Positions 3,827 through 62,698 are shown, counted from the first letter of the stretch. The stretch is DNA of 64,000 nucleotides from Elusimicrobiota bacterium (GCA_026388115.1 JAPLKK010000033.1:2470-66469), one strand, 5' to 3'. Notes: generated by a model from the sequence alone, not told the origin. Program-made: numbers and translations.

Positions 3827-3865
3827 CCCTCTCCCGCGAAGCGGGAGAGGGCAGGGGTGAGGGCA
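3827..3865 (+). repeat. Short palindromic repeat element, type A (CCCTCTCCCG-N5-CGGGAGAGGG-CAGGGGTGAGGGCA)
   Basis: Read directly. It forms a perfect 9-bp stem hairpin plus a conserved tail. It lies between the purNH stop and the next start, and supplies a GAGGG Shine-Dalgarno 7 nt before ATG 3870. Confidence 0.8.
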
Positions 3866-3869
3866 AATT

Positions 3870-4415
3870 ATGATCCTGACAATCGCCGCGCTGACCGCCG
3901 TCCTTTCCGTCCCATCCTTCGCCCAGCCACCCAATCCGCCCGACAAGAAAGCCGAAAGCAATCTCCCCGCCCGCGCTCCCAAGAACAGGACTTTCTCCCC
4001 GAAGGCGCCCTCGACGGCGCTCTCCGACATGAACCTTAAGGTCTCCTTCAAGCTCAAGTTCAAGAGGCTCGAGAGCTCGGGAAATTTCACGGTCCAGAGC
4101 GGCACCCAGGCGAATTACGTCATCGGCGGCGACGATCCCGTTGAGGTAATCACCAAACAGGGCACGGGCATCGAGTTCAAGAAATACGGCACCATCGTGA
4201 ACATCCTCCCCGCCGTCGTGTTCGACAGCGACAAGGTGGACGCCCAGTTGCAGGCGGAGCTCTCGGGCCCGCAGGCGCCCGAGACCTCGCTCAAGGTCAA
4301 CCCCATCTCTACGTTCCAAATCCAGACTGAGTTCACCATCACCCTCGGGAAGACCATCGTCCTGGTGGACGAACCCGACCGCCGCGTCGAAATAAAGATC
4401 GAACCCGCACCCTAA
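3870..4415 (+). CDS. Secreted hypothetical protein
   Basis: Signal peptide MILTIAALTAVLSVPSFAQ. The frame is non-repetitive with an SD supplied by the upstream repeat. No recognised domain. Confidence 0.5.
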   Translation: MILTIAALTAVLSVPSFAQPPNPPDKKAESNLPARAPKNRTFSPKAPSTALSDMNLKVSFKLKFKRLESSGNFTVQSGTQANYVIGGDDPVEVITKQGTGIEFKKYGTIVNILPAVVFDSDKVDAQLQAELSGPQAPETSLKVNPISTFQIQTEFTITLGKTIVLVDEPDRRVEIKIEPAP

Positions 4416-4433
4416 GCCGTTTTTCGTCGTTCC

Positions 4434-4472
4434 CCCTCTCCCGCCGTTCGGGAGAGGGCAGGGGTGAGGGCA
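4434..4472 (+). repeat. Short palindromic repeat element, type A
   Basis: Near-identical copy of 3827-3865 (CCCTCTCCCGCCGTTCGGGAGAGGGCAGGGGTGAGGGCA), in an intergenic position. Confidence 0.8.
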
Positions 4473-4497
4473 GTCGCCGTTTTGTAGACTACACCCG

Positions 4498-5427
4498 ATG
4501 TTTCCGCAACTGGCCCTGGCGTTCGCTGTCGCGCTCCCGCTTTGCGCCTCCCCCCGCGATACTCAGCTATCGCTCATCATCGACGACCGCCCGCGCGCGT
4601 ACCTGCCCCACGTCCCCGCCCTTTCGCCCGATAGGCCCTTGCCGTTGGTAATAGTCCTCCACGGCGGCGGCCAATCCAGCAAGGGCGCGCAGAGGTTCAC
4701 CGGCTTCAACGACCTCGCCGACCGCGAGGGCTTCATCGTCGCCTATCCCGACGCGATCGCGCACAAGTGGAATGATGGGCGCGGGACCACCAAACCGGCC
4801 AAGGGAGGCGTCGACGACGTTCGCTTCATCCGCGAGCTGATCGCGCAAGTCTCGAAGGAGCACAGCGTCGACCCGCGCCGCATCTACGCCACCGGCCCTT
4901 CGAACGGCGGCTTCATGACCCATCGCCTAGCCTGCGAGCTGTCCGATGTCTTGGCCGCCGCCGGTCCGGTCATTGCGGGCTTCCCCTTGGACTATCGCGA
5001 CAGTTGCCGCCCAGCCAAGCCGATTTCGATCATCATGATCCAAGGCACCGCCGACAAGCTGGTGCCCTTCAACGGCGGGCAGGTCGGCGGCAAGGGCCAC
5101 TGGGGCGCGGGCGGCAAGACGGACTCCGCCGAGAGCACGCGCGCCTTCTGGGCTGAACGCGAAGGCTGCAAGGCGCCGCCGGAAACCGCCGACTTGCCGG
5201 ATGAGGCCAACGACGGCACGAAGGTCCGCAAGTACGCCTACACGAGCTGTCAGTCAGGCGTCGAAGTGGTCCAGTACATCGTCGACGGGATGGGCCACCG
5301 CTGGCCCACAAAACACGCGCCGCTCCGACGCCGCGGCCTGGTCACCTGGATGCTCGGCCCCACTACGACCAACATCGACGCCACCGAGACCGTCTGGGAG
5401 TTCTTCAAGGCCCATCCCAAGCCTTGA
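4498..5427 (+). CDS. Secreted esterase of the poly(3-hydroxybutyrate) depolymerase / LpqC family
   Basis: It has a signal peptide. The motifs VIVLHGGGQS, FIVAYPD and the nucleophile elbow GPSNGGFM (GxSxG) are typical of PHB-depolymerase-like esterases (PF10503). Confidence 0.65.
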   Translation: MFPQLALAFAVALPLCASPRDTQLSLIIDDRPRAYLPHVPALSPDRPLPLVIVLHGGGQSSKGAQRFTGFNDLADREGFIVAYPDAIAHKWNDGRGTTKPAKGGVDDVRFIRELIAQVSKEHSVDPRRIYATGPSNGGFMTHRLACELSDVLAAAGPVIAGFPLDYRDSCRPAKPISIIMIQGTADKLVPFNGGQVGGKGHWGAGGKTDSAESTRAFWAEREGCKAPPETADLPDEANDGTKVRKYAYTSCQSGVEVVQYIVDGMGHRWPTKHAPLRRRGLVTWMLGPTTTNIDATETVWEFFKAHPKP

Positions 5428-5528
5428 GAAGTTTACACGCCTTCGGCACCTTGAAGCTTGCGGCGGAGGACCAACACGTATGTTATGTATAATGAGTTTA
5501 CAAGATATATATCGTCTTGTACACACAC

Positions 5529-5559
5529 TTGACAAAAGATGCCATAAACACCATAATCT
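5529..5559 (+). promoter_or_regulatory. Candidate sigma70-type promoter (TTGACA, 18 nt spacer, ATAATC) in an AT-rich leader
   Basis: TTGACA is at 5529-5534 and ATAATC at 5553-5558, only about 8 nt before the ATG at 5566, so the transcript may be leaderless or short-leadered. An extended -10, TGTATAAT, also lies at ~5487. Confidence 0.35.
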
Positions 5560-5565
5560 TGGTGG

Positions 5566-6768
5566 ATGGATACACTTCTAGAGCTCAACGACCTCGCAAA
5601 GAAGCAAGCCGGGAGATACACCAAGAAGCGCCCGATCTTTGAGCGGCTAAAGGCGGACGAAGGGCGAGCCTTCTCGGGGATCATCGGTCCGCGGGGCGTC
5701 GGGAAGACCGTTCTGCTCCGCCAGCTCCTGCGCGAGGTTCCCGACGCGTTCTATGTCTCCGTGGACACCTTGGACGACGCGACTCTCTTCGAGACCGCAA
5801 AGAAGTTGGAAGAGCGTTACGGCGTACGCCTGCTGCTGCTCGATGAGATCCACTTCGCCAAGGGGTACGCCGAGGACCTCAAGAAGATCCACGACTTCCT
5901 CGGCCTGCGCGTCGTGTTCACGAGCTCGGTGGCGCTGTCGCTCGTCCAGAGCGCGCAGGACCTGTCGCGCCGGGCGGTCCTCCGCCGGCTCTGGCCGTTC
6001 ACGTTCCGCGAGTACCTCGACTTCGTCCACGGCAGGCCGCTGCGCGCGTTGAGCCTCGCCGATATCCTCGAGAAGCGTTGGGACCCCGAGCACCTTCGGC
6101 AGGGCCATCTCTTCGACGAGTATCTTACCGGGGGGCTTTTCCCCTTCCGCATGGAACAGCCGGAGACCAAGGCGGTCTTCGAGGCAATCCTTGAGAAGAT
6201 CTTCCAGCGGGATATCCCCCGAACGGCGGGGCTGCGGACGGACGAGCCCGCGCTCATCGAGAAGCTGGTCCGCTTCGTCGGAAAGTCGGCGTGCGACGAC
6301 ATCAGCTACAGCTCGCTCTCGAGGAACCTGGGAATCACCAAGTACAAGGCCGAGCAGTACGTCGCCTTGCTCGACAAAGCGTTCGTCCTCGACCCCGTCC
6401 TGCCGGCGGGGACCAACGTCCTGCGGGAGCCCAAGATACTGATGTCCTTGCCGCTGCGGCTGCTCTACAAGGAACGCGACGAGGCGATCGGAGGGCTGCG
6501 AGAGGACTTCGCGGCCGAGACGCTCAGGATGGCCGGGAAAGAGTTCCACTACCTCAAGAGCCCCATCGGAGGCAAGACCCCCGATTTCCTGGTGACCGAC
6601 CCGGACGGCGACGTCGTCGTCGAGGTCGGAGGCAAGGGGAAGGGCCGGCGTCAGTTCAAGGGCTACCAGGCGCGCAGAAAGGTGCTGCTGACCCCGTCGG
6701 ACTCTCTGGAGGGCGACCGGCGGCCGCTCTTCCTGCTGGGCTTCCTCCCGGCTTCTTGCGAGCCGTAA
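5566..6768 (+). CDS. AAA+ ATPase of the COG1373 / DUF4143 family (C-terminal restriction-endonuclease-like domain)
   Basis: Walker A GPRGVGKT and Walker B LLLLDEIH. The C-terminal DFLVTDPDGDVVVEVGGKG matches a PD-(D/E)xK-like DUF4143 tail. Confidence 0.8.
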   Translation: MDTLLELNDLAKKQAGRYTKKRPIFERLKADEGRAFSGIIGPRGVGKTVLLRQLLREVPDAFYVSVDTLDDATLFETAKKLEERYGVRLLLLDEIHFAKGYAEDLKKIHDFLGLRVVFTSSVALSLVQSAQDLSRRAVLRRLWPFTFREYLDFVHGRPLRALSLADILEKRWDPEHLRQGHLFDEYLTGGLFPFRMEQPETKAVFEAILEKIFQRDIPRTAGLRTDEPALIEKLVRFVGKSACDDISYSSLSRNLGITKYKAEQYVALLDKAFVLDPVLPAGTNVLREPKILMSLPLRLLYKERDEAIGGLREDFAAETLRMAGKEFHYLKSPIGGKTPDFLVTDPDGDVVVEVGGKGKGRRQFKGYQARRKVLLTPSDSLEGDRRPLFLLGFLPASCEP

Positions 6769-7268
6769 GGGCCGTCAGCGAACCCCGACTTTCCCCTCCA
6801 GATCCGCCGCGTGAGCGCCGAGCTCGCGCTCGCCCGGCATGAGGGACGCCTTCCTGCGCGGGCCACCGAACTTGATGATGAGGCCGGCGACCACCGCCGC
6901 AGCGGCGCCGATCGACAGCGTGGCGAGAAAACCGATCATCGGATCATTCGTCCCCACGAATCAAGCTTACTTCTGCGTAGCGCGACAGCCGATGATACCA
7001 ACTTGGTTTTCTGCCTTTCGGTGCTCCTGCTTTTTCAAGTGCTCTGATTGCATGGCCTATGTCATCGGCCAAATCGGCTGTCCAAACGACATCACAGACC
7101 TTGCGAGAGGTGCTGAAGGCTACTAATTGGAAGTCGCAGTCCCGAGGCCATTGTGGCGATTTAAGTTGGGTCCCGTGGTTTGTCTCGACAATCGTTGTTC
7201 CTGTTGCGTCGGTGTCGATAGCAATTGCTAAGTCGAGCATAAATTTCTTCTCTCTCGCATTCTGGTTG

Positions 7269-8024
7269 CTAGACGGTGGTGAGCCAAGAAGTTTGAACTG
7301 TGATTCTCTCTCTTTTCCTAAATCTTAGCGCACCTGACAGCGGGGCTTGATAAATTTCGTGGAATGGAGACTCCCGAAAGTTCTTCACAACGAATAGAAA
7401 GAACCTATCAGCCAAAGATGAAGCGGTCTCATACTCTTTCGGTGTTAGAGATACGCTCCCCGTCCGTTCCTTGAGACCTTTGACTTCGACAGCCAGAAAA
7501 TCTTTTCGGGCGTCTGTTTCGAGTCGAAAATCATAGCCGCAGCCAAGCCGTGTTGTGTTCTCTAGGGCATAACCCTTGAATTGAGGGATATCCTGCCGAA
7601 CCGCTTCGAAGTATTGTTCCGCGGCCAGACCCGTAATGAGGCGTTCGGCGAAGAAGGACTTGCGATCTTCCTTTCCTGATATTTCGCTCCAAGCATTTTC
7701 GTTGTATGAGACAAAAGACTTGATCAACATGGAAAATGTTTCGAGGTCCAAACCTTTATATTCCTCGAACATCTTGCGGCAATAGTCTCGCGTGGGTCGT
7801 CCGTGCCAACCCTTTCGGCGATTGGGAAACAGAGGGTCGAACTCGTCACGGTAATTCTTAATCGAAGCTGGCTTTGCTCCCAGCGCATATCCAACTGCGT
7901 TAAACGCCTCCGCGAAGCTTTCAAAGCCGAGTTTCTTCAAGCCAGTCGAATCATATTTCGAGAGATACAGGCCAACAAGGATGAGTTTCTCCCTGGTTGC
8001 GATTCGCTGTGGATTCAGGATCAT
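7269..8024 (-). CDS. DUF3883-like PD-(D/E)xK nuclease-fold protein in a low-GC islet
   Basis: The C-terminal GCGYDFRL...FLAVEVKGLKE...SLTPKEYETA...FFLFVV matches the DUF3883 pattern (GYDi ... iEVK ... Lt.nE ... YyLyvV). The N-terminal half is unrecognised. The surrounding ~1.3 kb is visibly AT-richer than the flanks. Confidence 0.55.
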   Translation of the reverse strand: MILNPQRIATREKLILVGLYLSKYDSTGLKKLGFESFAEAFNAVGYALGAKPASIKNYRDEFDPLFPNRRKGWHGRPTRDYCRKMFEEYKGLDLETFSMLIKSFVSYNENAWSEISGKEDRKSFFAERLITGLAAEQYFEAVRQDIPQFKGYALENTTRLGCGYDFRLETDARKDFLAVEVKGLKERTGSVSLTPKEYETASSLADRFFLFVVKNFRESPFHEIYQAPLSGALRFRKRERITVQTSWLTTV

Positions 8025-8277
8025 ATCGCCCGGGTTCTGTCTTTGTTCATCAAACAGGGGGACGTTTTCGCCGAAACTGGGCGGGAACTGTCAGGGAGCG
8101 CACGCTGGGAGAGTGTGGCAGTCAGCAACATTAGATTCAGGATCAGGCAAAGCGGATTGTGTGATTGTACCATACCCACTATGTGCGAATGAGTTGGCCC
8201 AAAAATGCATGTGAGAGAAACCCGAAGCAAGAAATTCGCCACGACTGGGAAGTGCTTTTGCCACAATCGCTCTTTAG

Positions 8278-8347
8278 GTAAGCAAGCCAAGCGGGGTTTG
8301 GGCCCTGGAAGACGGAAGCGTCTTCCGGGGTTTTCCATGCGGGGCTG
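8278..8347 (+). repeat. Upstream direct-repeat copy of the carA 5' end (gene fragment)
   Basis: GGTAAGCAAGCCAAGCGGGGTTTGGGCCCTGGAAGACGGAAGCGTCTTCCGGGGTTTTCCATGCGGGGC is about 90% identical to 8895-8964, the real carA start ([19 protein letters not shown]). The fragment's frame terminates after about 35 codons. Confidence 0.8.
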
Positions 8348-8428
8348 ACGGAGAGGCGAAGGGAACCTTTTCGCTCCTGATTCGTACTAGTGGGTGGGGG
8401 CCGCGCCAGGGGAGGGCCCGCGCTCCGC

Positions 8429-8457
8429 TTGACGGTAGCAGGGGGCGCTGATACACT
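8429..8457 (+). promoter_or_regulatory. Candidate sigma70 promoter (TTGACG, 17 nt spacer, TACACT)
   Basis: Read directly. It lies 7-20 nt upstream of the retropepsin-like ORF start codons (GTG 8464 / ATG 8479). Confidence 0.4.
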
Positions 8458-8463
8458 GACTTT

Positions 8464-8901
8464 GTGGCGCGAAAGAAGATGGGGACATTCCACGAGCCGA
8501 TCGAGGTTTTGAATCCGTCCAACCGGCGGCGCAAGATTTCACTGGATGCTTTGGTCGACACGGGCGCCGCCTACAGCTTGATTCCCGGAAGGCTGCTGCG
8601 CGGCATCGGCGTGAAGCCGTCGCGCACGGGCCGGTTCAAGCTCGCCGACGGACGGATCGTCCACCGCGGCGTAGGACTGGTCACCGCCCGCGTCCGGCGC
8701 GAGGAGACTCCGACATGGGTCGTATTCGGCGACGCGGAGTCCGACCCGCTTCTCGGAGCCTTGACGCTGGAGGAGCTTGGTCTGGGCGTCGACAGCATCC
8801 ATCGAAGCCTCGTCAAGGTTACGCCCTTGCCGCTGTCGGCCTGCTTGCGTCCAGCCGCGCCTACCTCCACAGGACTTTTGCTACACTCCCTGCCGAGGTG
8901 A
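8464..8901 (+). CDS. Retropepsin-like (clan AA) aspartyl protease family protein
   Basis: The active-site motif ALVDTGAAYSLIP (D-T/S-G-A) sits in a ~120-aa domain typical of bacterial retropepsin-like proteases (PF13650/PF13975). The likely start is ATG 8479. The C-terminal extent is uncertain because the frame runs into the carA start region. Confidence 0.6.
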   Translation: MARKKMGTFHEPIEVLNPSNRRRKISLDALVDTGAAYSLIPGRLLRGIGVKPSRTGRFKLADGRIVHRGVGLVTARVRREETPTWVVFGDAESDPLLGALTLEELGLGVDSIHRSLVKVTPLPLSACLRPAAPTSTGLLLHSLPR

Positions 8902-10032
8902 GCAAGCCGAGCGGGGTTCTGGCCCTGGAAGACGGAAGCGTCTTCCGGGGTTTTTCATGCGGGGCCGAAGGCGAGGCGGGCGGAGAGCTGGTCTTCAACA
9001 CCTCGATGACGGGCTACCAGGAAGTCCTCACCGACCCCTCCTATAAGGGCCAGCTTGTCGTGATGACGTATCCGCAGATCGGCAATTACGGCATCACCGC
9101 GGAAGATAACGAATCGAAAAAGCCATTTCTTGAGGCGTTCGTCGTCCGGGAGCTGTGCCGGCATCCCTCCAACTGGCAGTCGGTCGAGACGGTCGAGTTC
9201 TTCCTCAAGAAGCACGGCGTGTGCGCGATCGAGGGCATCGACACGCGCGCGCTGACGCTCAAGCTTCGCGATAAAGGGTCTTTACGCGCGATCGTATCCT
9301 CCGTGGACCTCGACGGCAAACGGCTGGTCGAGAAGGCGCGCGGGCTGCCGTCGATGGCCGGAAGCGACTTTGCGCAGACGGTGACTTGCGACAAGGCGCA
9401 TCCCTGGACGGAGAAGCTCCAGGCGGGACCCTCGGGCCTTGGCGAGTTCCTGGTGCCCGGGCGACCGCTGCATGTCGTCGTGGTGGATTTCGGCGTGAAA
9501 TACAGCATCCTCCGCTGCCTTGCGACGCTCGGTTTTCGCGTGACGGTCGTGCCGGCGAAAATGACGGCGGAGGAGATCCTCGCGCTCAAGCCGGACGGCG
9601 TGCTCCTCTCCAACGGCCCAGGCGACCCGGAACCGGTCACTTACGCCATCGAGACGATCAAGAGGCTCATCGAGACAGGCACGCCGCTGTTCGGCATCTG
9701 CCTCGGCCATCAGCTTCTTGGGCTGGCGCTGGGCGCAAAGACGTTCAAGTTGAAGTTCGGCCATCATGGCGCCAATCATCCGGTCAAAGATCTGACCACG
9801 GGAAAGATCGAGATCACGACGCAGAACCATGGCTTCTGCGTGGATATAGATTCCCTGCCGCGCGAGGTGAAGACGACGCACGTCAATCTCAACGACGGGA
9901 CCTCGGAGGGGATGGCGCACACACAGCTGCCGCTCTTCTCCGTGCAATATCATCCGGAGGCGGCGGCGGGGCCGCATGACACGAGGTATCTCTTCAAACG
10001 ATTTGGCGAGGTGATGGTAGAGAAGAAGATTC

Positions 10033-10040
<8 letters not shown>
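8898..10040 (+). CDS. carA: Carbamoyl-phosphate synthase small (glutamine amidotransferase) subunit
   Basis: GTG start giving [49 protein letters not shown], with the class I GATase triad region (GICLGHQLL...HHGANHPV). It overlaps the carB start by 8 nt. Confidence 0.9.
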
Positions 10041-13285
<3,245 letters not shown>

Positions 13286-24390: not shown

Positions 24391-24464
24391 CCCTCTCCCG
24401 CCTAGGGCGGGAGCCTCCGCCGTTCCCCCTCTCCCGCGTTCGGGAGAGGGCAGGGGTGAGGGCA
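24391..24464 (+). repeat. Tandem pair of palindromic repeats (partial hairpin plus full type A copy)
   Basis: CCCTCTCCCGCCTAGGGCGGGAG is followed by CCCTCTCCCGCGTTCGGGAGAGGGCAGGGGTGAGGGCA. It lies between two convergent genes and is likely terminator-like. Confidence 0.8.
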
Positions 24465-24475: not shown

Positions 24476-25057
24476 TTACTGCGGCTGTCCCTTCACAAAA
24501 TGCCCGTAGCACACGGACACGTAGCTTTCGTTGCCGCCGATCTGCACCTGCTCCCCTGAGCGCAGCACGCGGCCCTTGTCGTCGACCCGCAGTGTCATCG
24601 TCGCCTTTCGGCCGCAATGGCAGATGGTCTTGATCTCCGTCATCTCCTCCGCCCAGGCAAGAAGGTACTTGCTGCCTTCGAAGGGCTCGCCCATGAAGTC
24701 CGTCCGCAGCCCGTACGCGAGCACCGGCAGCCCCAGTTCAATCGAAATCCGCTTGAGCTGCTCGACCTGCGCCTTCCTCAAGAACTGCGCCTCGTCGATG
24801 AGCACGCAGCGTATCTTGCCGTTGCCCTCGACGGCCTTGGCCACGTGGGCGAAGAAATCGAACTTGTCGTCGAAGGATACCGCGTCCCGGCTGAGGCCGA
24901 TGCGGGAGGTGACCTTGCCCGTTCCGAACCGGGCATCGATGGTGGGAACGAACATCACCGTCGCCATGCCGCGTTCCTGGTAGTTGTAAGCAGACTGGAG
25001 CAGCCACGTGCTCTTCCCTGCGTTCATCGCCGAATAATAGAAGTACAGCTTCGCCAT
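24476..25057 (-). CDS. tdk: Thymidine kinase
   Basis: [17 protein letters not shown] (P-loop), VLIDEAQF, and the zinc-ribbon [12 protein letters not shown]...CYGH are canonical Tdk. Confidence 0.9.
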
Positions 25058-25391
25058 CGCGCCTCCGACCCGAACGGGCTCGCGCGGATTATACGTTTCC
25101 ATCCGCCTGCTCGGCTAAGGCTCCGTCCCGCCGAACGGTCATGCCTTAGTCAGGCCCCGCCCCGCGGCCCCTCTCTATTGCGCCGCAGTCGCGAATCCAT
25201 GAGGCATTCCCCGTCGAGGCCGGCCCACCATCATCCGAGCGTTGCTTGGTGATATATTTTCGCTGAGACCATCATCGCATCGCATCTTGAGCCAGCGAGG
25301 AGTATGCAGGGTTGTCCAGCGCACTCCTGCGGCTTGACTGAAACGCCCCCCTAGCATATGCTCCCTCCCCGTCGTTCCAGGAGGAGCCCCC

Positions 25392-26671: not shown

Positions 26672-26783
26672 CAATCGGGATCGGCCTCCGGCTCATCCCT
26701 TGAGACCAGCTGGGTCCATTATTGGGCGAAGCTTGCCCGTTCGGCCCAGGTCACTCCACCCGGCCCTCCGTATATTGTCGGGT

Positions 26784-27623: not shown

Positions 27624-27690
27624 CCGACCAGAATCGGATTTCTCGACACGGCGCACGTTAGGTATACTGTCGTCCGCCGCGCCAGATTTT

Positions 27691-30724: not shown

Positions 30725-30746
30725 GCGCGCCTGCGCCTTCGATCTA

Positions 30747-32818: not shown

Positions 32819-33267
<449 letters not shown>

Positions 33268-50800: not shown

Positions 50801-52429
50801 CTCGGACTGCGCGTCGGCCACCGCGACGCGCCAATAGTAGGTCGTATTGTCGGTGAGCGTGAACGTCGAGCCGTACGCTCCGTCCGCCGTCGGAAGGCCG
50901 GCGGCGACGACGACGGGCGTCGCTATGCTGATCACGATGCTCGATGGCGCAAAGGCCGGGTCGTTGTTCGAGACTTGGAGGAGATACAGCGCGCCGCCCG
51001 GCAGGCCGGCGGCCGAGACCGTGCTGAGGCCGATCCAATTGAAATTCGGCTGGACGTTCAAATACGCGTAGTTGGGCGGGTAGCTCGGCGCGATCGCCGA
51101 CAGGTCCGGGGGGAGCACGCCGCTCAGGGTCAGGCGGAGCGCGCGGTACGCGTTGGCCAGCCCCGCGCCGGCCGCCGCCGAGGCGCCGATGGCGTATGCC
51201 GAGCTTCTCAGATTGGTCTGCACCTGCGCCGGCGTCAGCGTCGGCATGGCCGAGAGCATGAGGGCCGCGATGCCCGCGACCAGCGAGGAGGCGTACGACG
51301 TGCCGGCCACGGAAACGTAGCCGCCGTTGAGGCCGGTGGTGAGGATCCCGTTGACGGCGTCGCCGCCCGGAGCGACGAGGCCGTTGGCGGCGAGCTCGGG
51401 GCCGCGGGACGAATAGGCGGCCACGGCGTTGGATATGTCCGTGGCGCCCACGGGGATCACATTCGCGCAATTGGCGGGGTTGTTGACCGCGTTCCCATCG
51501 TTTCCCGCGGAGGCAACGACGGTCATTCCCGCTGCGGAGGCGGCGTTGAGCGCGTTCTGCAGCGGCGCGCCGCACGGGCCCGCCGCGCCGAGGCTGAGGT
51601 TCGCGACGACGCGACCCGTCAAAGTCTCGGCGTAGCCAAGCGCGGCGATGACGGAAGCGTCCGAAGCGACGCAAGCGCTTCCCCCGCAGGAGGAGTCGCA
51701 GGAGCCGTCGCTCGGGAATACTTTCAGCGAGACGACCTTCGCCCCCCACGAAATGCCCGCGACACCGATCCCGTTGTTGGTCGAGGCGGCGGCGACGCCC
51801 GCGACCGCCGTGCCGTGGTAACAGGCCGGAACCGGCGGGTTCTCACCGACGCAGACGCCGCTCGAGCAGTCCTGGCTATGCGACGCGTCGATCTTAGCGG
51901 CAAGGTCGGGATGGTCGGCCTGTATGCCGGAGTCGATGATCGCGATCGAGACCGGATTGGTGTTCCCCGTCTCGTAGCTCCAGGCGGCGAGCGCGGCCAC
52001 GTTGTTCAAGTACCACTGGCCGCCCAGTTGAGGGTCGTTCGGGCTCAGCAGCGCCCGGTGGGCGCGGTTGGGATGGGCGTCGAGCACGCCGGGCAAGGCC
52101 TTCAATATCTCCAGCCCATTGGCGACGGGCATGCCCTCGGGCATGAAGACGAGGTGAGCGGCGCTTCGCCCGAGCCGCCGCTGCACCAACATCCCTGCGT
52201 TCCTCAACGCTTGCGCCCGTACCTTCGCGTCCACGCCCTCATCGAAGAGAACGAGTGCCTCCCCGGCGAGCACTTCCGCATTGCGAAAGGACGGCATGCG
52301 CTCGACGCGGCGCCTATGCGCCGCCTCGGCCGAAGCGGGAACGAGAGAGACGGCCGCCAGCGACAGGAGGGCGCCGACCAGGCGACAGGCGGCGGAACGG
52401 GCTGTTCGGCGGCCACAAAATCCAAGCAT
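41834..52429 (-). CDS. N-terminal portion of giant secreted protein: signal peptide, I9-like propeptide, S8 subtilisin domain, multiple BNR/Asp-box beta-propellers, Fn3 arrays
   Basis: S8 triad in IIDSGIQ (Asp), CYHGTAVAG (His), AGTSYASS (Ser) at ~51229-52039. It has dozens of S-x-D-G-x-x-W Asp-box motifs with FNGKLYAGT blades, and repeated Fn3 modules (LAAVP...SATLSWSANGNP...WDLERS). The 3531 codons run without a stop. Confidence 0.85.
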   Translation of the reverse strand: MLGFCGRRTARSAACRLVGALLSLAAVSLVPASAEAAHRRRVERMPSFRNAEVLAGEALVLFDEGVDAKVRAQALRNAGMLVQRRLGRSAAHLVFMPEGMPVANGLEILKALPGVLDAHPNRAHRALLSPNDPQLGGQWYLNNVAALAAWSYETGNTNPVSIAIIDSGIQADHPDLAAKIDASHSQDCSSGVCVGENPPVPACYHGTAVAGVAAASTNNGIGVAGISWGAKVVSLKVFPSDGSCDSSCGGSACVASDASVIAALGYAETLTGRVVANLSLGAAGPCGAPLQNALNAASAAGMTVVASAGNDGNAVNNPANCANVIPVGATDISNAVAAYSSRGPELAANGLVAPGGDAVNGILTTGLNGGYVSVAGTSYASSLVAGIAALMLSAMPTLTPAQVQTNLRSSAYAIGASAAAGAGLANAYRALRLTLSGVLPPDLSAIAPSYPPNYAYLNVQPNFNWIGLSTVSAAGLPGGALYLLQVSNNDPAFAPSSIVISIATPVVVAAGLPTADGAYGSTFTLTDNTTYYWRVAVADAQSEVLGPWLIQTGMGFFPARFQTDFTAPAQAAGFGTRVSTYPPAGEAQLQSLAANVTAQIGVQDAGTGLAVFPSPPTMDGHDYSSWSSPFGVLYSTNAGRTWIDSPSPNIVFAGSSTTHVLALAAFNNKAYAGTTNNAGLYVSASGGSWTQVFSSTFPGGAGETQIQSFAPFNGKLYFGTYGKGKIFSSPDGSTWTAVFTSPVQAGAQGIESMVVFNGKLFAVNSVTSVIYVSGDGASWSPVGSPGPSVNTLGVFNGRLYAGANGVLFVSADGVNWGQTSIPGTTAIRSLASYNGRLFAGTEPSGAVYGSANGVDWTPALTGTGGASIRSLAVFNGKLYAGTYMGGIYASPDGATWMPVFSSAAAGGVEGLAALNGKLYAGTDGGKIYQFTPVQAGLTGTNGATGAQTLSAFNLSLVNSSNSVVCGGVSPCGATNQVLFTASDLGGNVLTAGPFAVLISSMPSAPLSFARRATGVDSIQWSWTGASPNPSGYRVMAASANVSGDLPPDATGWLQTGLSTNTRYGPYVVRVFTSSGTADSASVSGYTLAAVPAGFAGSVAGASSATLSWSANGDPAGTVWDLERSSDGINVNSIFQSSAAASYTDYGLLPASTYFYQVRAKNGDGFFTAFAATATVITLPALSTAVPTFPVDGSYVNIQPNFDWIGLSTTSAAALPAGSAYYLQVSNNDPAFTPSNIVISISTPAVLTSTSVRTADAAYLSTFTLTDNTTYYWRVAANNGAFGAWSQASKFYADFTPPVQSAAFASLSGTSTLVGEAQINPGFGGAARLGVQDAGTGLAVTQGRLAFAGDGHDGPGSSGGCGVLYSTDAGKSWVDSYYMTPTFSSTAAVSVPALASFNGRLYAATANNAGLYASANGVTWNLVFSSTFPGGAGETQIQSFAVFNGKLFFGTYGAGKIFSSFNGTTWSAAYTAPAQAGPQGIASLTVFGGRIYASNSAASMLYASSDGAGWSRVPAPGPSIGTLGAFNGRLFAGGAGILFASVDGVNWSQASLPGATAIRTLAAFNGKFYAGTEPAGAVYASANGSDWAAVLTGTGETAIRSLAVFNGKLYAGAGPDGAIYASPDGARWMLVFSTAAAGGIASLAGFSGNFYAGTNDGRIILKNPLFPNLGGADGTTAAQTLSVFGLALNNSSNTVTCGGASPCAATNQVIFTVSDLAGNVLAAGPYAIVVSSPPPAAANYMHSAVGVDAIQWSWVSTATMISGFRVMSGTTNISGDLPPGTTVWLELGLATNTRYGPYFVRIFNSTGAADSWSASAFTLAAVPANLAATAVGPSSATVSWDANGNPSGTFWDLERSTDGVLYAPVFQSSVAASVADGGLTLSATYYYKVRAKNGDGYFTAFAGPVPVNVSGWNLAAPTAPGLFAHAAAGPDAIRWSWVNSVPNAAGLRVMSGSTSISGDLPAGTTSWLQTGLSINTRYGPYFARAFNSSGTADSSSNSGFTLAAAPAQFSISPLGAGGATLSWSPNGNPPNTIWDLERSTGTTLAAVFQSSAAPTFTDALLPGITYTYWVRAKNGEGIATDFAGPVSLALTPVSLLPTYPANGAYVNLQPNFDWIGASTAVVAGMSSGASYLLQVSNNDPGFSPASIVIGISTPAVVASTGLPTADAAYLSTFTLTEAATYYWRVALSGDSVGPWSPTFSFVTDFTPPAQAGAFASLNSSGAAVSESQVNDLRSTVTVQIGVQDAVSGLAVSANALALVGDGHDTPGFVQGFGVMCSSSAGSAWQDFANMDWPYWNSGVQSLASYNGKIFAGSANSGAVYSSSDGLAWSTEFVTSGRSVRSFAAFNGRLYAGTVAGAAVYSTGGGGAWTRNYAVAGDGVASITALASFNGRLYAASTGAVPSALYSSPDGINWYQNPAPGPPILSLISFNGQLYAGGSGGIYASADGVSWTHPAVNGNVYSLAIFGARLYAGTDYHGQIASSADGLNWTAGSTVEGTITALSAFNGKLYAANSNGPLFTTPDGVNWLVVNWPWSPRSLVSLAAFNGKLYIGSWTNGGIARAAPLASALSGADGTTAAQTLTGALLNLSNSAASMVCNGISPCGATNQAIFTAWDRAGNVRTAGPFAIQAAGPPIASWLSGRAMGTGSMLWFWPAPASLVVGYRVMSGTVNLSGDLPASATSWLEVGLSTNTTYYRFLRTFNSTGTADSYQFPGATSAAPPTSLAISPVGPSSATLSWSANGNPAGTTWDIFRSTDGVSYAWRSLLTTGATSFTDTSLAPLSTYYFKVAGRNRDSIDSALAGPVALPPLIAPPSIFAGTPVSTRSIFWSWNDKSVLGTRYRVISGNANVSGDLAGNTTTFLQTGLTPNTLYGPYWVTAFNGATNATSAPASRYTLAAAPSGLAAVAASSSAVGLSWSANGNPVTTLFDLQRSTSGTFVSIALTTAATFLDTGLNPSTMYWYQVRAKNAEGLFTDFGVMASTLTAAQGPPVAPKGFAGKGVATTRIAWSWSSGATNALGYRVMAGATNLSGNLFPDATSWMQDGLSTATCYGPYLLQAFNGSGVSTSSSAASACTLAAPPTMFYPLAVSTTSVTLSWSTNGNPQGTRYTVSASTAGSPFLSQTTATATVTFGGLLPATTYLFSIVAISPSSDTSQQTVTSARTADASAPAAATGFAGVALGTSAVQWRWTVNSAVAAGYRVLAGTANISGDLPPSLNSWTQTGLSPNRIYGPCLVEAFNSGGTADSGLASRATLAASPAGFAAVRISSTSATFSWSAAGNPSGTPYRLERSTTGATANFSPWITTLDTAATDGYLSPATTFYYRLAAVNADGVLSAYTPAAAVVTPSADAPPAPTNVSGAAVARNAIRWTWTGNSMNETGYRVLSAGVNLSGDLPPFTVVWLQTGLSTNTQYGPMTVQVFNHGGASVSLPPVSAYTLAVAPAGLVVSAASTTASLRWSANSNPAGTLYEVDRSTGGVFLFVANVRSTTYLDTGLSPLVAYSYQVRALNGDGVPTAFVRSGMTMTSSPGPPAAPR

Positions 52430-54617: not shown

Positions 54618-55560
54618 TTATGAACCCTCACCCCGACCCTCTCCCGCCGTTGGCGGGAGAGGGAGAGCGTGGTATACGGCGAGGGCTTCCTGCACGGTTC
54701 GGGCATGGAGGGCCACGGTGTCCTCGAGCTTGGGGGCATAGCCCCCGCCCAGCGTCAAGACGACCGGGATGCGCCGGTCCTCGCAGGCGGCGAACACGAA
54801 CTGGTCGCGCGCGGCGATGCCGTTGGCGGTCAGCTTCAGGCTCGCCAAGAGGTCGCGCTCGTGCACGTCCACGCCGGCCTGATAGACGACGAGGCCCGGC
54901 TCGTGACCGTCCAGAGCGGTAGGCAGGCGCGAGCGCAAGAGCTCCAGATACTCGATGTCGCGCGTCCCGGTGGGCAGCTCGATGTCCATCGTGCTCTTCT
55001 GGCGAGGCTGGGGATAGCCGTCCTTCTGATGCATCGAGAAGGTGAACACGTCCGGCTCGCCGGCGAAGATCGACGCCGTGCCGTTGCCCTGGTGCGCGTC
55101 GAGGTCGACGACGAGGGCGCGCCGCACGACCTTCTCGCGCCGCAAGGTCTCGATGGCGAATGCGATGTCGTTGAACATGCAGAAGCCCTCGCCATGGTCG
55201 CGGAAAGCGTGATGCGCGCCGCCGCCGATGTGCAGGCCCAGGCCGCCCTCGAGCGCCAGCCGCGCGGCCGCGAGGGTCCCCCCCGCCGCGAGCGCGTGCG
55301 CCTCCATCCCCGGGCGCGACCATGGCAGCTCCATCATGGTCTCCTCGTCCAAGGTGAGCGCGCCGGTGCCCGCGCGGCGGACCCAATCGGCGGCGTGCAC
55401 GAGCCCCAGCGCCTCGGGAGACGGCATCTCAGGCTCGACGCGCCGGTCCGCATCGAGCGCGCCCTCCGCCATGAGCTTCTCGGCGGTGCGCTGGAACTTC
55501 AGGGTGGGAAACGTGTGCGCGCCGATATCGACGGTATAACGCGCCGAAAAGACCCAGTGG
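54618..55560 (-). CDS. Histone deacetylase-family (AcuC/HDAC-like) protein
   Basis: Zinc/catalytic motifs HIGGGAHHAF, FCMFNDIAF, DLDAHQGNGT. The N-terminus ...LFHWVFSARYTVDIGAHTFPTLKFQR lies in frame upstream of the first ATG (55472), so the start is non-ATG and overlaps the tonB 3' end. The C-terminal PLPPTAGEGRGEGS is encoded by a repeat element. Confidence 0.7.
54625..54663 (-). repeat. Palindromic repeat, type A, inverted orientation
   Basis: CCCTCACCCCGACCCTCTCCCGCCGTTGGCGGGAGAGGG. It forms the last codons and stop of the HDAC-like gene and the spacer to the prfB start. Confidence 0.8.
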
Positions 55561-55572
55561 AAGAGGTTGGTG

Positions 55573-56774: not shown

Positions 56775-56777
56775 CGG

Positions 56778-59012: not shown

Positions 59013-59867
59013 TCACGGTTTCGGAAACAAGGAGCAGGCACGCAGGTCTCTTACGAACCCCTCCTTCATCGGCGCGCCCGGCCAGGGCAGCCACCCCGGC
59101 TCGGGGGCGAACTCGACGGAGGTGCCGCCGCAGCGCGCTTCGATCCAGCCCGGACGGCCGGCGGAAAGCGTCCAGCCCTTGAGCCAGAGCTCGCCGGGCC
59201 TCATCCCGTCCACGAAAACGACGGCGGCGCGAGGATGAAGGAGCAGCACGGCCGCTCTGGCCGCGCTGAGCCGGCACGCCCGCGCGCGCCGGACAACGAG
59301 GTCATGGCAGGCGCCGCGGCCGATGAGGGCCGCCTCGCGGCGCAACGCCCGCCGCGCCCGCGCCCGCCGCGCCAAGAGCCCAAAGCGGCCGAGGATGAGC
59401 GCGAGGAAAGCGGCAACGACGCTTGCCCTCACCCTACCCTCTCCCGAACGTCGGGAGAGGGAAAGAGGCCGTTCTCCCTCTCCCACCGAAGGCGGGAGAG
59501 GGCCGGGGTGAGGGCAAATCCTCCACTGTCCGAACCGCTCTCGCACCGCTTCCAGCCGGCCCGAGCCGTCCGCGGCTTCGAAGGACACGCGCGCTCGATT
59601 CCAGTCCTCCATCGCGAGCCCCACCCGGCTCCCCGGCCGCGCCTCGGCCGGGATGCGCTCATGGCGCCAGCCCTCGCCGGGCCACGATGCCACGCGTTGG
59701 GCCAGATACGGCTCGTTTCCATACAGATAAGCGACCCGCTCCAACCCGTCCGGACCGCGCGCGGCCTCGGATATCACGATGGCCGGATCCAGCCGCCCGG
59801 GGCCGCCGACCCTGTCGAGGGGCCCGCCAGGCTGGGAAAGGAAAAGCGCCAGAGCCGCGGTGATCAT
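59013..59867 (-). CDS. Hypothetical protein carrying an in-frame inverted pair of palindromic repeats (low confidence)
   Basis: The 284-codon frame from MITAALALFLSQP has GC-rich third positions and continues through 59424-59516 (31 codons of repeat-derived PHPGPLPPSVGEGERPLSLSRRSGEGRVRAS). It has no recognisable domain and could be non-coding. Confidence 0.25.
   Translation of the reverse strand: MITAALALFLSQPGGPLDRVGGPGRLDPAIVISEAARGPDGLERVAYLYGNEPYLAQRVASWPGEGWRHERIPAEARPGSRVGLAMEDWNRARVSFEAADGSGRLEAVRERFGQWRICPHPGPLPPSVGEGERPLSLSRRSGEGRVRASVVAAFLALILGRFGLLARRARARRALRREAALIGRGACHDLVVRRARACRLSAARAAVLLLHPRAAVVFVDGMRPGELWLKGWTLSAGRPGWIEARCGGTSVEFAPEPGWLPWPGAPMKEGFVRDLRACSLFPKP
59424..59516. 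repeat. Inverted pair of type A palindromic repeats (59424-59461 inverted, 59476-59516 direct)
   Basis: TGCCCTCACCCTACCCTCTCCCGAACGTCGGGAGAGGG ... CCCTCTCCCACCGAAGGCGGGAGAGGGCCGGGGTGAGGGCA. Confidence 0.8.
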
Positions 59868-59924
59868 CGCCCGGTTCGACACCGGAGAGGTTGATTTGTT
59901 CCCGGTTGCGGCTATACTGGGTGC

Positions 59925-60647
59925 ATGGGAAGAGCACAGGGCGCGCTGCTCGGGCTGCTGAGCCTGGCGGGCGTGGGCGCCTTCGCGGCCTACAAGAAGC
60001 TCGGCTCCGTCATCAAGGACCGGCTCGAACGCTACGCGTCCAAAGCCGCCGGCACGGCGGTCTCCGTGCGCGAGGTCTCGGTCAACCCGTGGACCGGCGC
60101 GGGGAGCATCCGCGGATTGGTCATCGGCAACCCCGCCGGCTTCAAGACGGAAAGCGTTTTTCGCGTCGACGATATCCGCGTCCGGCTGGAGCCGAAGACG
60201 CTCCTGAGCGGGACCATCCGCATCAAGGAAATGGTGCTCGACAGCCCCGTGCTCACCTGGGAGCTCGGCCCGGGCGGAGGAAACCTCGGACGCATCCGGA
60301 AGAACCTCGAAGCCCGGACCGGAACGAAGGTCAAGAACGGGAAAAGAGCCGTCAGCGAAACCTCCGAGCGAAGGCTCATCGTCGAGCGCTTCGTCCTCAG
60401 GAACGCGCGGCTGCGCGTCGCCCGCTCGGGCCTGGACGGCCCGGTGCTCCTGCCCATGCCGGATCTCAAGCTCGAAGGCCTGGGGGAAGGACGCGGAGGC
60501 GACAGCGCGCAGCAGATACTTTCGCAGATCCTCGACGCGACGATCCGCTCGGGACTCGACGCCGCGGGCGGGGCGGGCGACGTCCTGCGTTCGGCGGGAA
60601 AGGCGATCTCGAAGACGCTGGGGAGTCTTTTCAAGAAGAAGAGCTGA
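59925..60647 (+). CDS. AsmA-like / DUF748-type membrane-anchored protein
   Basis: N-terminal anchor LLGLLSLAGVGAFAAY. The repeated ...VSVREVSVNPWTGAGSIRGLVIGNPAGFK... / ...IRIKEMVLDSPVLTWE... pattern is typical of AsmA/DUF748 N-terminal regions. Confidence 0.45.
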   Translation: MGRAQGALLGLLSLAGVGAFAAYKKLGSVIKDRLERYASKAAGTAVSVREVSVNPWTGAGSIRGLVIGNPAGFKTESVFRVDDIRVRLEPKTLLSGTIRIKEMVLDSPVLTWELGPGGGNLGRIRKNLEARTGTKVKNGKRAVSETSERRLIVERFVLRNARLRVARSGLDGPVLLPMPDLKLEGLGEGRGGDSAQQILSQILDATIRSGLDAAGGAGDVLRSAGKAISKTLGSLFKKKS

Positions 60648-60660
60648 TTTTTCCGCCCAC

Positions 60661-61188
60661 ATGCCGCCTTTGAAGGACGCGCTGCGCCGTGCGCTCGCCA
60701 AGCAGAAACCCCGCCGGGAGCCGATGGATGGATCGATCCGCGCGGCGGTGCTCGTGCCGATGCTCGGCGGCCGAGAGCCGCGGCTCCTCTTCATAGAGCG
60801 CACGGCCCACGCGCTCGACCCGCACTCCGGGCAGATCAGCTTTCCCGGCGGCCGCTGGCACGCCGGCGACACCGACGCCGTGGCGACGGCCTTGCGCGAG
60901 GCGGAAGAGGAACTGGGGCTCGGCAGGGATGCGGTCGAGGTGCTCGGCTGTCTCGCCGAGCGGCGCACGATCACGGGCTTCGCCATCACGCCGGTCATCG
61001 GCTGGATCGAGACCTGCCCGCCGCTCACGCCGCAGGCCGCCGAAGTGGCCGACTGTTTCCAGGTGAGCATCGGCGAATTGTCAGGGACCCGCGAGAACGG
61101 ACGCCTCGAGTATCATGCGGACGGCCGGGTGATCTGGGGCGCGACGGCGCGGATCACGTCGGAGCTGCTGGAGCTTTTGGCTAAATAA
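60661..61188 (+). CDS. NUDIX hydrolase, CoA pyrophosphatase-like
   Basis: Nudix box GGRWHAGDTDAVATALREAEEELGL. An upstream AAVLVPM... region is as in NudL-type CoA pyrophosphatases. Confidence 0.75.
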   Translation: MPPLKDALRRALAKQKPRREPMDGSIRAAVLVPMLGGREPRLLFIERTAHALDPHSGQISFPGGRWHAGDTDAVATALREAEEELGLGRDAVEVLGCLAERRTITGFAITPVIGWIETCPPLTPQAAEVADCFQVSIGELSGTRENGRLEYHADGRVIWGATARITSELLELLAK

Positions 61189-62698
61189 CCAGCGCGGCTA
61201 TCGCCGCGACCAACGCGAGCCAGCCGAACCAGTCGCCGGCGCGGGAATAGAGCGAGCGGCGAGGGAACGGATCGACGCTCGGGACCGAGCCGTAGAGCAC
61301 TCCCTCCCGCATCAAGTCCAGTCTCGCCGTGACGCGGCCCCAGGGATCGATGACCGCCGAGATGCCCGTGTTTCCCGCGCGGATCACATAGGCGCGGTTC
61401 TCGATCGCGCGGAAACGGTTGGCGTAGAAGTGCTGTAAGGGTCCCCAGGTGTCCTTGTACCACCCGTCGTTGGTGAGGTTCGCGAGCACGCGCGCGCCCG
61501 CCTGCACGTTCACGCGGCTCCAGCGAGGAAAGATCGCCTCATAGCACAGCGTGACGCCGACGGGGCCGATCGGGGTCTCCAGCGGAGGCTGCTTCAGCGC
61601 TCCAGGGGTGAGATCGCCCATCTGCCCCAGGATGCCGATCCAGCCCTCCAGGTATCGGCGGAAGGGGACATACTCGCCGAAGGGCACCAGCTCGCGCTTA
61701 TGATAGACGCCCGCGATGCGGCCCGACGCGTCGACCAGCACCGCCGAGTTGCGGTGAAAGCCATTCTGGTCGGTCAGCGCTCCGGCTAGCTGGGCCACGC
61801 CGCTGCGCGCGGCCCAAGACGAGACCCAGACCCGATTGTCCTCGAGCCAGCCGGGGACGGAAGTCTCCGGCCAGACGATCAGCGCGGGCTTGGCCTGGGC
61901 GGCTTGGGCAAGCAGGCGGTCGAAGCTCGAACGGATGCTCACGACCTCGCCCTCGTCCCACTTGCGATATTGGTCGACGTTCGGCTGGATGATCGCGACC
62001 AAGTACTCCCTCCCCCCTCGTGGGGGAGGGTTGGGGTGGGGGGTAGGCGCCGTTCGCAATGAGATCGTTCCGGCCAGCCACCAGGCGGCGATGAGGGCCA
62101 CCACGACCACAGCGTTCCTTAAAAGAACGACGCTTTCCCTCACCCCCGCCCTCTCCCCTTTGGGGGAGAGGGCGCAAGCCAAAACGCCGTTTGCGGCGAC
62201 GATGAGGAAGCCGAGGGCGTGGGGGCCGAACCAGGAGGCCGGCTGCAGCAGCGTCAAGAAGCGCCATTGAGTATAGCCGAGGAGGTCGCAGCCGACGCGC
62301 GGAGTCCAGCGGGCGAGCGCGAACTCCAGGGCGGCCCACAACGCCGCGCAAGCCCAAGGCCGCAGCGCCGCCGGAAGGCGGGCGAGCCGATAGACGCCGG
62401 CGGCGAACACCGCCCAAGCGGCCCCCTCGAAGGCCGCGAGCGCGGCCCAGGCCAGCAGGGACACCGGGACCGGCACGCCGGCGAAGCGGCAGGTGAGATA
62501 GATCCAGTGAAGCAACAGGGCGAAGAAGGCGGCGCCCGCGACCCAGCCGAGCGCGGCCGCGCGCCAAGCGCTCTTGGCCCCGCGCGCGGCGAGAAGCAGC
62601 GGGACCAAGCCGATCCACGCGAGCGGACAGAGGCTGGGCTTAGGGAAGCAGAGGGCGAGGAGGACTCCCGAGAGGACGGCGGCTAAGAGCCGTGGCAC
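61181..62698 (-). CDS. lnt: Apolipoprotein N-acyltransferase with two in-frame palindromic-repeat insertions
   Basis: N-terminal polytopic membrane domain and C-terminal CN-hydrolase domain (LVAIIQPNV..., WPETS, catalytic-Cys region VTLCYEAIFP). LSPKGERAGVRES and LRTAPTPHPNPPPRGGREY are encoded by repeat copies at 62138-62173 and 62008-62044. Confidence 0.85.
   Translation of the reverse strand: MPRLLAAVLSGVLLALCFPKPSLCPLAWIGLVPLLLAARGAKSAWRAAALGWVAGAAFFALLLHWIYLTCRFAGVPVPVSLLAWAALAAFEGAAWAVFAAGVYRLARLPAALRPWACAALWAALEFALARWTPRVGCDLLGYTQWRFLTLLQPASWFGPHALGFLIVAANGVLACALSPKGERAGVRESVVLLRNAVVVVALIAAWWLAGTISLRTAPTPHPNPPPRGGREYLVAIIQPNVDQYRKWDEGEVVSIRSSFDRLLAQAAQAKPALIVWPETSVPGWLEDNRVWVSSWAARSGVAQLAGALTDQNGFHRNSAVLVDASGRIAGVYHKRELVPFGEYVPFRRYLEGWIGILGQMGDLTPGALKQPPLETPIGPVGVTLCYEAIFPRWSRVNVQAGARVLANLTNDGWYKDTWGPLQHFYANRFRAIENRAYVIRAGNTGISAVIDPWGRVTARLDLMREGVLYGSVPSVDPFPRRSLYSRAGDWFGWLALVAAIAALVI
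62008..62044 (-). repeat. Palindromic repeat, type B, inverted, in frame inside lnt
   Basis: CCCTCCCCCCTCGTGGGGGAGGGTTGGGGTGGGGGG. Confidence 0.75.
62138..62173 (-). repeat. Palindromic repeat, type A variant, inverted, in frame inside lnt
   Basis: CCCTCACCCCCGCCCTCTCCCCTTTGGGGGAGAGGG. Confidence 0.75.

Follow-up and report, generated by a model that had tools for sequence, protein, structure and literature searches.

Short repeats able to fold into an intrastrand triplex have been described in bacteria under three names, as BoxC in the 1990s (Bergler 1992), as PIT elements (Hoyne and Maher 2000) and as the TMECO motif (Holder et al. 2015, PMC4666352); they are among the most conserved short repeats of bacteria, with no known function or means of spread. 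Here we examine a stretch of 64,000 nucleotides from an uncultivated Elusimicrobiota bacterium (GCA_026388115.1, JAPLKK010000033.1:2470-66469), the whole of which we refer to as the window, with positions counted from its first letter. The homologs of an apolipoprotein N-acyltransferase (Lnt) and of a dehydrogenase encoded in it likewise point to uncultivated Elusimicrobiota. An earlier note on this DNA had described a dispersed family of short, GC-rich palindromes. These repeats are BoxC/PIT/TMECO elements, an assignment that their sequence makes secure, and in the window they act as an active, lineage-specific invader, in a phylum for which the family had no earlier description.

The published TMECO consensus reads CCCTCNCCC N3-6 GGGNGAGGG N3 GGGNGAGGG (PMC4666352). 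Oligonucleotides of the Escherichia coli motif form a class II purine-motif intrastrand triplex in vitro, as judged by circular dichroism (CD) and nuclear magnetic resonance (NMR), the NMR data favouring the triplex and giving no support to a quadruplex (PMC4666352). E. coli K-12 carries 23 copies, every one of them intergenic, and a survey of 262 proteobacterial genomes counted 3610 copies with a maximum of 143 per genome (PMC4666352). The same study linked the motif with genomic variability, found neither promoter nor terminator activity, and reported no mobility gene or transposase beside any E. coli copy (PMC4666352). According to earlier work, the motif has no association with phages.

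Architecture and identity of the repeats

Our own pattern scans located 12 full copies (c1 to c12) and one partial copy of a 34-39 nt element in the window, a density of ~190 per Mb. The type A pattern matched exactly at four places, against 0.06 expected from shuffles, the type B pattern at four (0.00 expected) and the G-rich box at five (0.44 expected), and a general repeat finder joined the copy sites to one another (families D20 and I2-I7). By these shuffle expectations the motifs lie far above chance where the earlier note had seen them, and its three pairs (24391-24464, 27889-27983 and 59424-59516) and the occurrence of copies in both orientations were recovered, whilst its count of 14 or more copies comes down to 13, and its statement that element lengths are multiples of three does not hold for every copy, the cores running from 34 to 39 nt. 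An independent assembly contig (L127, Logan SRR25046533), 99.98% identical to the window, contains the pair at 59.4 kb and begins inside the copy at 59476-59514; the copies are therefore not an assembly artefact, and the position of the contig break indicates that they are repetitive enough to interrupt short-read assembly.

Each copy is built of three blocks: a C-arm, a complementary G-arm with which it forms a hairpin of 9-12 bp, and a second G-block 2-3 nt further on, the loop between the arms being 4-9 nt long. On the G-rich strand the 9-nt C-arm and the second G-block read CCCTCTCCC and GGGTGAGGG in type A, and CCCTCCCCC and GGGTGGGGG in type B. The copies have a G+C content of at least 80%, and beyond the core a weaker consensus continues on either side, with (C)GTTCY flanking the hairpin and CRAGCGY following the G-block. 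Watson-Crick pairing of the arms is complete (9/9) in 11 copies and 8/9 in c7, and folding as single-stranded DNA with ViennaRNA, which models the hairpin only, gave 9-12 bp hairpins of -10 to -17 kcal/mol, with stability z-scores reaching -4.4 and the third block unpaired. When this block is laid antiparallel to the purine arm, all nine positions form allowed triplets (G*G:C, A*A:T or T*A:T) in 12/12 copies, and in a parallel-register control the asymmetric type B drops to 7/9.

Type B corresponds to type A with one whole triplet replaced (T-A*A to C-G*G) and is a compensated variant of it. The two subtypes of the earlier note are real, as is the dispersed palindromic family, but they are not two separate elements: A and B share one architecture, whose third block and whose identity as the BoxC/triplex motif were missing from that description. 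A triplet constraint predicts that the variable positions of box and arm change together, and this is what was found among the 121 loci listed, drawn from many phyla, where the combinations TT, CC, CT and TC occur 97, 20, 4 and 0 times (Fisher p = 3e-19).

The strict TMECO consensus is matched by two of the twelve window copies (c3 and c12); with loop 1 relaxed to at most 9 nt, loop 2 to 2-3 nt and one free position in block 3 the number rises to 11, and with up to two mismatches per block to all 12. The type A arms are identical to the E. coli arms, and of 5426 complete E. coli genomes 4020 contain sequence that is 86% identical to a window copy over 43 nt, one such site lying between deoB and deoD. 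Collection-wide, the box-plus-arm pattern was present at no fewer than 120 loci (at least a dozen phyla), the matches listed including Pseudomonadota, Bacteroidota, Cyanobacteriota, Chloroflexota, Verrucomicrobiota, Planctomycetota, Acidobacteriota, Myxococcota, Deinococcota and others, and the matching right arm was present in 126 of 138 copies among the collection matches listed. The pattern also occurs in at least 120 viral contigs of IMG/VR (L129-L248), some of which may be prophages with host flanks. A search of Rfam at gathering thresholds matched tRNA alone and placed no RNA family over the copies.

Copies inside genes and at gene ends

An intergenic location is not general in this genome: seven of the twelve copies (c4, c5 and c8 to c12) lie in frame within open-reading frames (ORFs), and c7 overlaps a truncated gene. 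The clearest case is the apolipoprotein N-acyltransferase gene lnt (61181-62698, - strand), which carries both c11 (type B, 62008-62042, + strand) and c12 (type A, 62137-62172, - strand). The latter encodes LSPKGERAGVRES in a loop ahead of the last N-terminal membrane helix, the former APTPHPNPPPRGGRE between that helix and the nitrilase domain; the ORF is intact, the LNT_N and CN_hydrolase domains are complete, and the columns with the invariant E, K and C residues are kept. Both copies are absent from ten aligned Lnt orthologs (53-70% identity) and present in a 96% relative (L001), in which an in-frame indel of 9 nt within c11 abolishes the hairpin. The earlier note had likened the in-frame copies to Rickettsia palindromic elements, and the orthologs bear it out that they are true insertions; the alternative, that the segments are conserved peptide motifs of the proteins, was ruled out by these orthologs and by the copy-free syntenic contig L002.

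The other in-frame copies occupy comparable places. A conserved membrane protein of unknown function (~59034-59882, - strand) contains the inverted pair c9 (type A, 59426-59461, - strand) and c10 (type A, 59476-59514, + strand), separated by 14 nt and situated just ahead of a membrane helix. The WD40 ORF at 27800-29056 (- strand) contains c4 (type A, 27891-27927, - strand) and c5 (type B, 27949-27983, - strand, with an additional partial type A box at 27940-27948), both in the linker that joins the WD40 propeller to a C-terminal membrane anchor. At the 3' end of a histone-deacetylase-family gene (54618-55562, - strand), c8 (type A, 54625-54663, - strand) is read through and adds the 14-residue tail PLPPTAGEGRGEGS to the protein; the alignment with the L002 ortholog stops exactly at 54663, one residue before the stop of the ortholog. 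Pro, Gly, Glu, Arg and Ser are abundant in the inserted peptides. On its C-rich strand the element core has a stop codon in no frame, and on its G-rich strand in no frame for type B, in one frame for seven type A copies and in two for c9, so that in-frame survivors would be easily obtained. In c4, c9 and c12, the box-side flanks (27880-27890, 59415-59425 and 62126-62136) share a CAAGCGTCGTT-like sequence past the G-block, which is translated as the first residues of the membrane helix (..SVV.., ..FVV..); the element may supply these residues or may prefer such sites.

The remaining copies are intergenic or lie at gene ends. The hairpin of c1 (type A, 3827-3863) is followed by the G-block on the + strand, with 9/9 Watson-Crick pairs and 9/9 triplets; it lies between a purN-purH fusion gene (1622-3817) and a 181-aa secretin-like gene (3870-4415), ending 6 nt short of the ATG. 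With c2 (type A, 4434-4470, + strand), intergenic, 3' of the same gene and in the same orientation, it places the secretin-like gene between two direct copies. The proposal that c1 donates a Shine-Dalgarno (SD) sequence to this gene is plausible, as it provides GGTGAGGG 7-14 nt before the ATG, where the spacer downstream of purH in a relative that lacks c1 (L249) has the ordinary ribosome-binding site AAGGAGGAG. Between the convergent genes 22849-24381 (+ strand) and thymidine kinase (24476-25102, - strand), an older partial copy (24391-24420, + strand), comprising the C-arm, the loop and part of the G-arm, is interrupted by c3 (type A, 24427-24462, + strand). The 94-nt divergent spacer between the WD40 gene (start at 29056) and a PhoU_div gene (29151) holds c6 (type B, 29083-29116, - strand), and c7 (type B with a damaged C-arm, 30691-30725, - strand) begins 1 nt past the PHO4 stop codon.

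Gain, loss and breakpoints between relatives

Comparison of orthologous loci for presence or absence, which the earlier note had proposed, revealed that copies are gained and lost between close relatives. In relatives at ~70-80% protein identity, copies are missing at five of the nine sites covered by their contigs. L002 (11.6 kb, syntenic with 53.4-62.7 kb and encoding proteins 51-84% identical) has none at the positions of c8 to c12, L126 (~75% related) has none in 21 kb, and L249, which lacks c1 as described above, ends in element-like sequence at the position of c2.

Two closer relatives, L124 and L125, share 84-97% DNA identity with the window. The copy c4 is common to the window and L124, with a different loop, and c5 is absent from L124, with a net change across c4/c5 of +39 nt in the window that preserves the frame; c5 is thus a recent insertion. 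At the c3 site L124 has a single intact copy, and the window has a 33-nt insertion in the loop or right arm of that copy, c3 being a second copy nested in an older one with a box-side flank that differs from L124. At the c6 site, two direct type B copies surround a 1.1-kb NTP-transferase gene in L124, whilst the window has a solo copy and no such gene; the left flank of c6 is the flank of the left copy in L124 and its right flank that of the right copy, a pattern that marks either recombination between two copies or a cassette with copies at its ends.

At the c7 site, L124 and L125 have 156 nt that comprise a type A copy, the start codon of a saccharopine/lysine dehydrogenase gene and its first 11 codons (MKFMVLGSGMQ). 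In the window c7 takes the place of the spacer, start codon and first 11 codons, leaving a dehydrogenase ORF at 30747-31886 that has lost its start and most of the Rossmann glycine loop, and the junction falls at a GGGG microhomology. The claim that truncated genes adjoin the copies is borne out for this gene but not for the 181-aa secretin-like gene; a truncated secretin was ruled out, its homologs being mostly ~180 aa long (157-208 aa). In all, breakpoints between the window and L124/L125 coincide with copies at c3, c5, c6 and c7, in a comparison scored at the copy sites alone. Copies therefore stand at the exact breakpoints of gene loss and truncation between near-identical genomes, which supports at the level of sequence what had been a statistical claim of genomic instability; these exact breakpoints and the in-frame copies in essential genes are behaviours with no earlier report in the family.

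DUF559 genes are bracketed by the repeats

In three unrelated loci fetched for their repeats, the same small protein recurs between paired copies, with the DUF559 domain (PF04480), a Vsr-like endonuclease domain of the PD-(D/E)XK type. Among 2.0 Mb of DNA chosen solely because it contains the element there are six DUF559 genes, each of them no more than 35 nt away from a copy. The association was also found in reverse. Sixteen DUF559 loci were chosen by protein similarity alone from plasmid and chromid records, covering 12 genera of Pseudomonadota, Cyanobacteriota and Deinococcota, and about 12 of the 16 have a hairpin, with or without the box, directly before and after the gene. A second set comprised 104 DUF559 genes in metagenome contigs, found by the back-translated coding motif KFRRQHP alone. 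Here, boxed copies cluster at -200 to -100 nt from the motif (38 of 102 loci) and in the interval from +200 to +400 nt, where two bins covered by 96 and 88 loci contain 40 copies. Next to the gene there are 1.95 copies per kb, as compared with 0.027 per kb at distances above 700 nt, which amounts to a 71-fold difference. A TM-type hairpin is adjacent to 70 of the 104 genes (67%).

The arrangement is also directional. On the strand of the DUF559 gene the order is [hairpin, G-block] - gene - [C-block, hairpin], with orientation counts of 36:11 upstream and 35:8 downstream, and this bias implies that the copies are inverted terminal repeats of a unit of 400-550 bp. The two ends of one unit are 85% alike, against 75% between units, and the extended ends TTCY-core-CRAGCGY are common to DUF559 units and window copies. 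Flanking AACGRCG and CGTT sequences were considered as a target-site duplication and rejected, as they are part of an extended consensus common to unrelated contigs. Two of the IMG/VR contigs (L162 and L182) carry a DUF559 unit.

Several DUF559 genes with flanking hairpins are wedged in operons, between sufB and sufC, between paaD and paaZ, and between a TRAP permease gene and nirK, and others stand beside hpaB in two Deinococcus species. These operon-inserted genes (L257 577-987, L253 574-927, L251 592-930, L255 565-906 and L264 556-900) look like selfish insertions. The DUF559 family is represented in E. coli K-12 by ycjD, a neighbour of fabI, and TMECO #9 occupies the spacer between the two genes. 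BoxC was first described beside envM, the gene now called fabI, so that ycjD stands at the original box C locus.

Among known structures, the DUF559 profile hits PDB 3HRL and, less strongly, 3R3P; the former is the structure of a gonococcal DUF559-family protein (PMC3424549) and the latter is the homing endonuclease I-Bth0305I (PMC3239194, PMC3424549). In Neisseria gonorrhoeae (L256, 488-1515) a DUF559 gene lies amid related but distinct hairpin repeats (CTCTCTCCCTGTGGGAGAG..., and CCCTCCCCTGTGGGGGAGGG plus a G-block), which suggests lineage-specific versions of the unit. Our search of the literature found no paper that links DUF559 and the repeats to each other, or the repeats to a gene.

Means of spread

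We consider it probable that the window copies are BoxC/triplex repeats that have recently expanded here as selfish or near-neutral DNA, driven by a DUF559 cassette, the driver being the part we infer. On this account one strand would fold into the hairpin, and the third block would bind its purine arm to give a purine-motif intrastrand triplex. New copies would enter intergenic spacers and regions coding for flexible loops or linkers, and those already present would in turn cause rearrangement, by recombination between copies and by microhomology deletions. The putative driver is a DUF559 endonuclease cassette of which the elements would be the terminal inverted repeats or the homing site; DUF559 might be a homing-type nuclease with the motif or an inverted pair of motifs as its site, or the enzyme of a tiny element bounded by inverted repeats, and the solo copies and pairs of the window may be remnants of such cassettes without the gene. 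A more specific version, which we put forward tentatively and regard as quite possible though short of probable, holds that a selfish DUF559 cassette of 400-550 bp, present in many bacterial phyla and some viral contigs, has BoxC elements as its inverted ends or as its homing site, that the dense solo and paired copies of this Elusimicrobiota genome, those in essential genes included, are its non-autonomous offspring, and that the nuclease recognises a hairpin bearing a triplex or mismatches.

Several observations weigh against a triplex-forming element moved by DUF559. No triplex was detected in E. coli in vivo by dimethyl sulfate (DMS) footprinting (PMC4666352), every window copy is also a potential G-quadruplex sequence with four G-tracts, and the A/B covariation could come in part from the descent of two subfamilies instead of repeated compensation. 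Neither the 64-kb window nor ~55 kb of its close relatives contains a DUF559 gene. A boxed copy is adjacent to 46 of the 104 motif-selected DUF559 genes (44%), and on both sides in 28; none of 26 units has a direct repeat of 3 nt or more at its edges that would mark a target-site duplication. The window pair c9-c10 faces box-outward, the reverse of a collapsed DUF559 unit, and the E. coli TMECO pairs are box-inward (PMC4666352, Table 1). The association could, moreover, mean that DUF559 genes insert into pairs that already exist.

The same two absences, of a target-site duplication and of a DUF559 gene in the window, agree with spread driven by structure alone, through template switching, gene conversion or unequal recombination, with DUF559 as a passenger or as a gene with a preference for such sites. 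The tandem and nested copies (c3, c4-c5), the conversion-like replacement of a flank at the c3 locus and the recombination between copies at c6 would all be natural products of these processes. We nevertheless think this unlikely, for three facts are left unaccounted for: at least 12 phyla use the same 9-nt arms, although the triplex rule would allow many other sequences; DUF559 genes are bracketed 71-fold above background and in a specific orientation; and new copies arise with no neighbouring copy, as in lnt.

It is improbable that the copies are RNA or DNA signals under selection, that is terminators, stabilisers of mRNA 3' ends, ribosome-binding sites or G-quadruplex switches. The hairpins are stable enough, c1 to c3 and c7 do lie at gene ends, c1 provides GGTGAGGG where L249 has its SD, and the four G-tracts are present throughout. 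Yet the terminator-like role that had been proposed for copies between convergent genes finds no support: no copy is followed by a T-run past its stem, and a scan of 20-34 kb called none of the five copies there, whilst it called the terminator of tRNA-Ser at 27786-27811. Seven of the 12 copies lie in ORFs, where termination would harm; relative to the mRNA strand, judged from coordinates, seven copies present the G-version, three the C-version and two are ambiguous; orthologous sites in relatives do without copies; and the published experiments found no promoter or terminator activity and, by NMR, no support for a quadruplex (PMC4666352).

Least probable of all, and by a wide distance from the DUF559 account, is the view of the earlier note, that of REP elements with a REP-associated tyrosine transposase (RAYT) as their mobiliser. 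The copies do resemble REPs in being short palindromes of high G+C that are scattered in both orientations, in many cases paired or at the ends of genes, and whose presence differs between relatives, but no conserved GTAG-type tetranucleotide stands by the hairpin, the flanks being (C)GTTCY and CRAGCGY, and the conserved third block is foreign to REPs. The search for a transposase gave no match in the window, and with E. coli RayT as the query, 2.09 Mb of DNA selected for the element yielded a single homolog, which is unflanked and lies 2.7 kb from a copy, in contrast with six of six DUF559 genes adjoining copies in such DNA; nor did Holder et al. see a transposase beside any E. coli copy. We favour the DUF559-driven expansion, and the association on which it builds, that of E. 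coli ycjD included, turns the mechanism by which the repeats move into a testable hypothesis.

Other features of the window

The 731-aa ORF upstream of c1 (1622-3817, + strand) encodes a PurN-like Formyl_trans_N domain joined to the two PurH domains, MGS and AICARFT/IMPCHase, and the same PurN-PurH fusion is present in L249 (7776-9971). Directly after c1/c2, the region 4001-12000 has a G+C content of 0.60-0.64, against 0.65-0.71 elsewhere in the window, and could be a foreign segment. Upstream of c3, an imperfect tandem repeat of 21-24 nt (GCCGCAGCCGCCGCAGCAGGC..., 23301-23411) lies in the ORF 22849-24381, which has no Pfam domain, and encodes a Pro/Gln/Ala-rich low-complexity stretch. A segment of ~975 nt (26674-27648), which includes an ORF without Pfam match (26700-27623), is absent from the 90% relative L124 and lies directly upstream of tRNA-Ser (27691-27781).

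A giant ORF of 3531 aa (41834-52429, - strand), together with 39048-41837 (- strand), consists of diverged internal repeats whose modules recur at ~537-549 nt and ~2.2 kb spacing (repeat families D1-D16). A 57-nt stretch at 33196-33252 and 62689-62745, 93% complementary between the two sites (I1), is conserved coding sequence and not a repeat element: it specifies the C-terminal SEC-C zinc-binding motif both in SecA (62683-63981) and in a second ORF, which ends at 33267.

Comparison with described systems

With REP/BIME elements and their RAYTs, the window copies share the form of short, dispersed, GC-rich palindromes at gene ends, and a small gene between inverted copies as the suspected mobiliser is formally analogous to the DUF559 units. 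They differ in having no GTAG head and no Y1 transposase, in having a third block, and in a candidate partner that is a PD-(D/E)XK endonuclease. DUF559 units have inverted motif ends, like the gene-carrying parents of miniature inverted-repeat transposable elements (MITEs), and none was found in this lineage.

Rickettsia palindromic elements offer the nearest parallel to the copies in genes, as palindromic inserts in frame that add surface or loop peptides and do not destroy the protein. These elements (RPE-1 to RPE-8) are 100-150 bp long, AT-rich, confined to Rickettsia and without sequence relationship to the present copies; the window elements are 34-39 nt long with at least 80% G+C, and size and composition exclude an assignment to that family. 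On the side of the enzyme, the DUF559 genes bracketed by the repeats belong to the same family of Vsr-like nuclease folds as I-Bth0305I (3R3P), whose homing activity is proven (PMC3424549) and which differs in being intron-encoded and in having an extra DNA-binding region, whilst a homing role of DUF559 is putative and the window has no DUF559 gene.

The closest system remains BoxC/PIT/TMECO itself. The window copies differ from those described in their host phylum, Elusimicrobiota against 262 proteobacterial genomes, and in their abundance, ~190 per Mb against at most 143 copies per genome reported. An additional G-C pair lengthens the stem and makes loop 1 longer, a whole triplet is exchanged in type B (T-A*A to C-G*G), and seven of 12 copies lie in ORFs, whereas the E. 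coli copies are all intergenic. What they share is the three-block architecture, near-identical arms (CCCTCTCCC / GGGAGAGGG / GGGTGAGGG) with variable loops, the occurrence as solo copies and inverted pairs without a linked transposase, and the local rearrangement that accompanies them.

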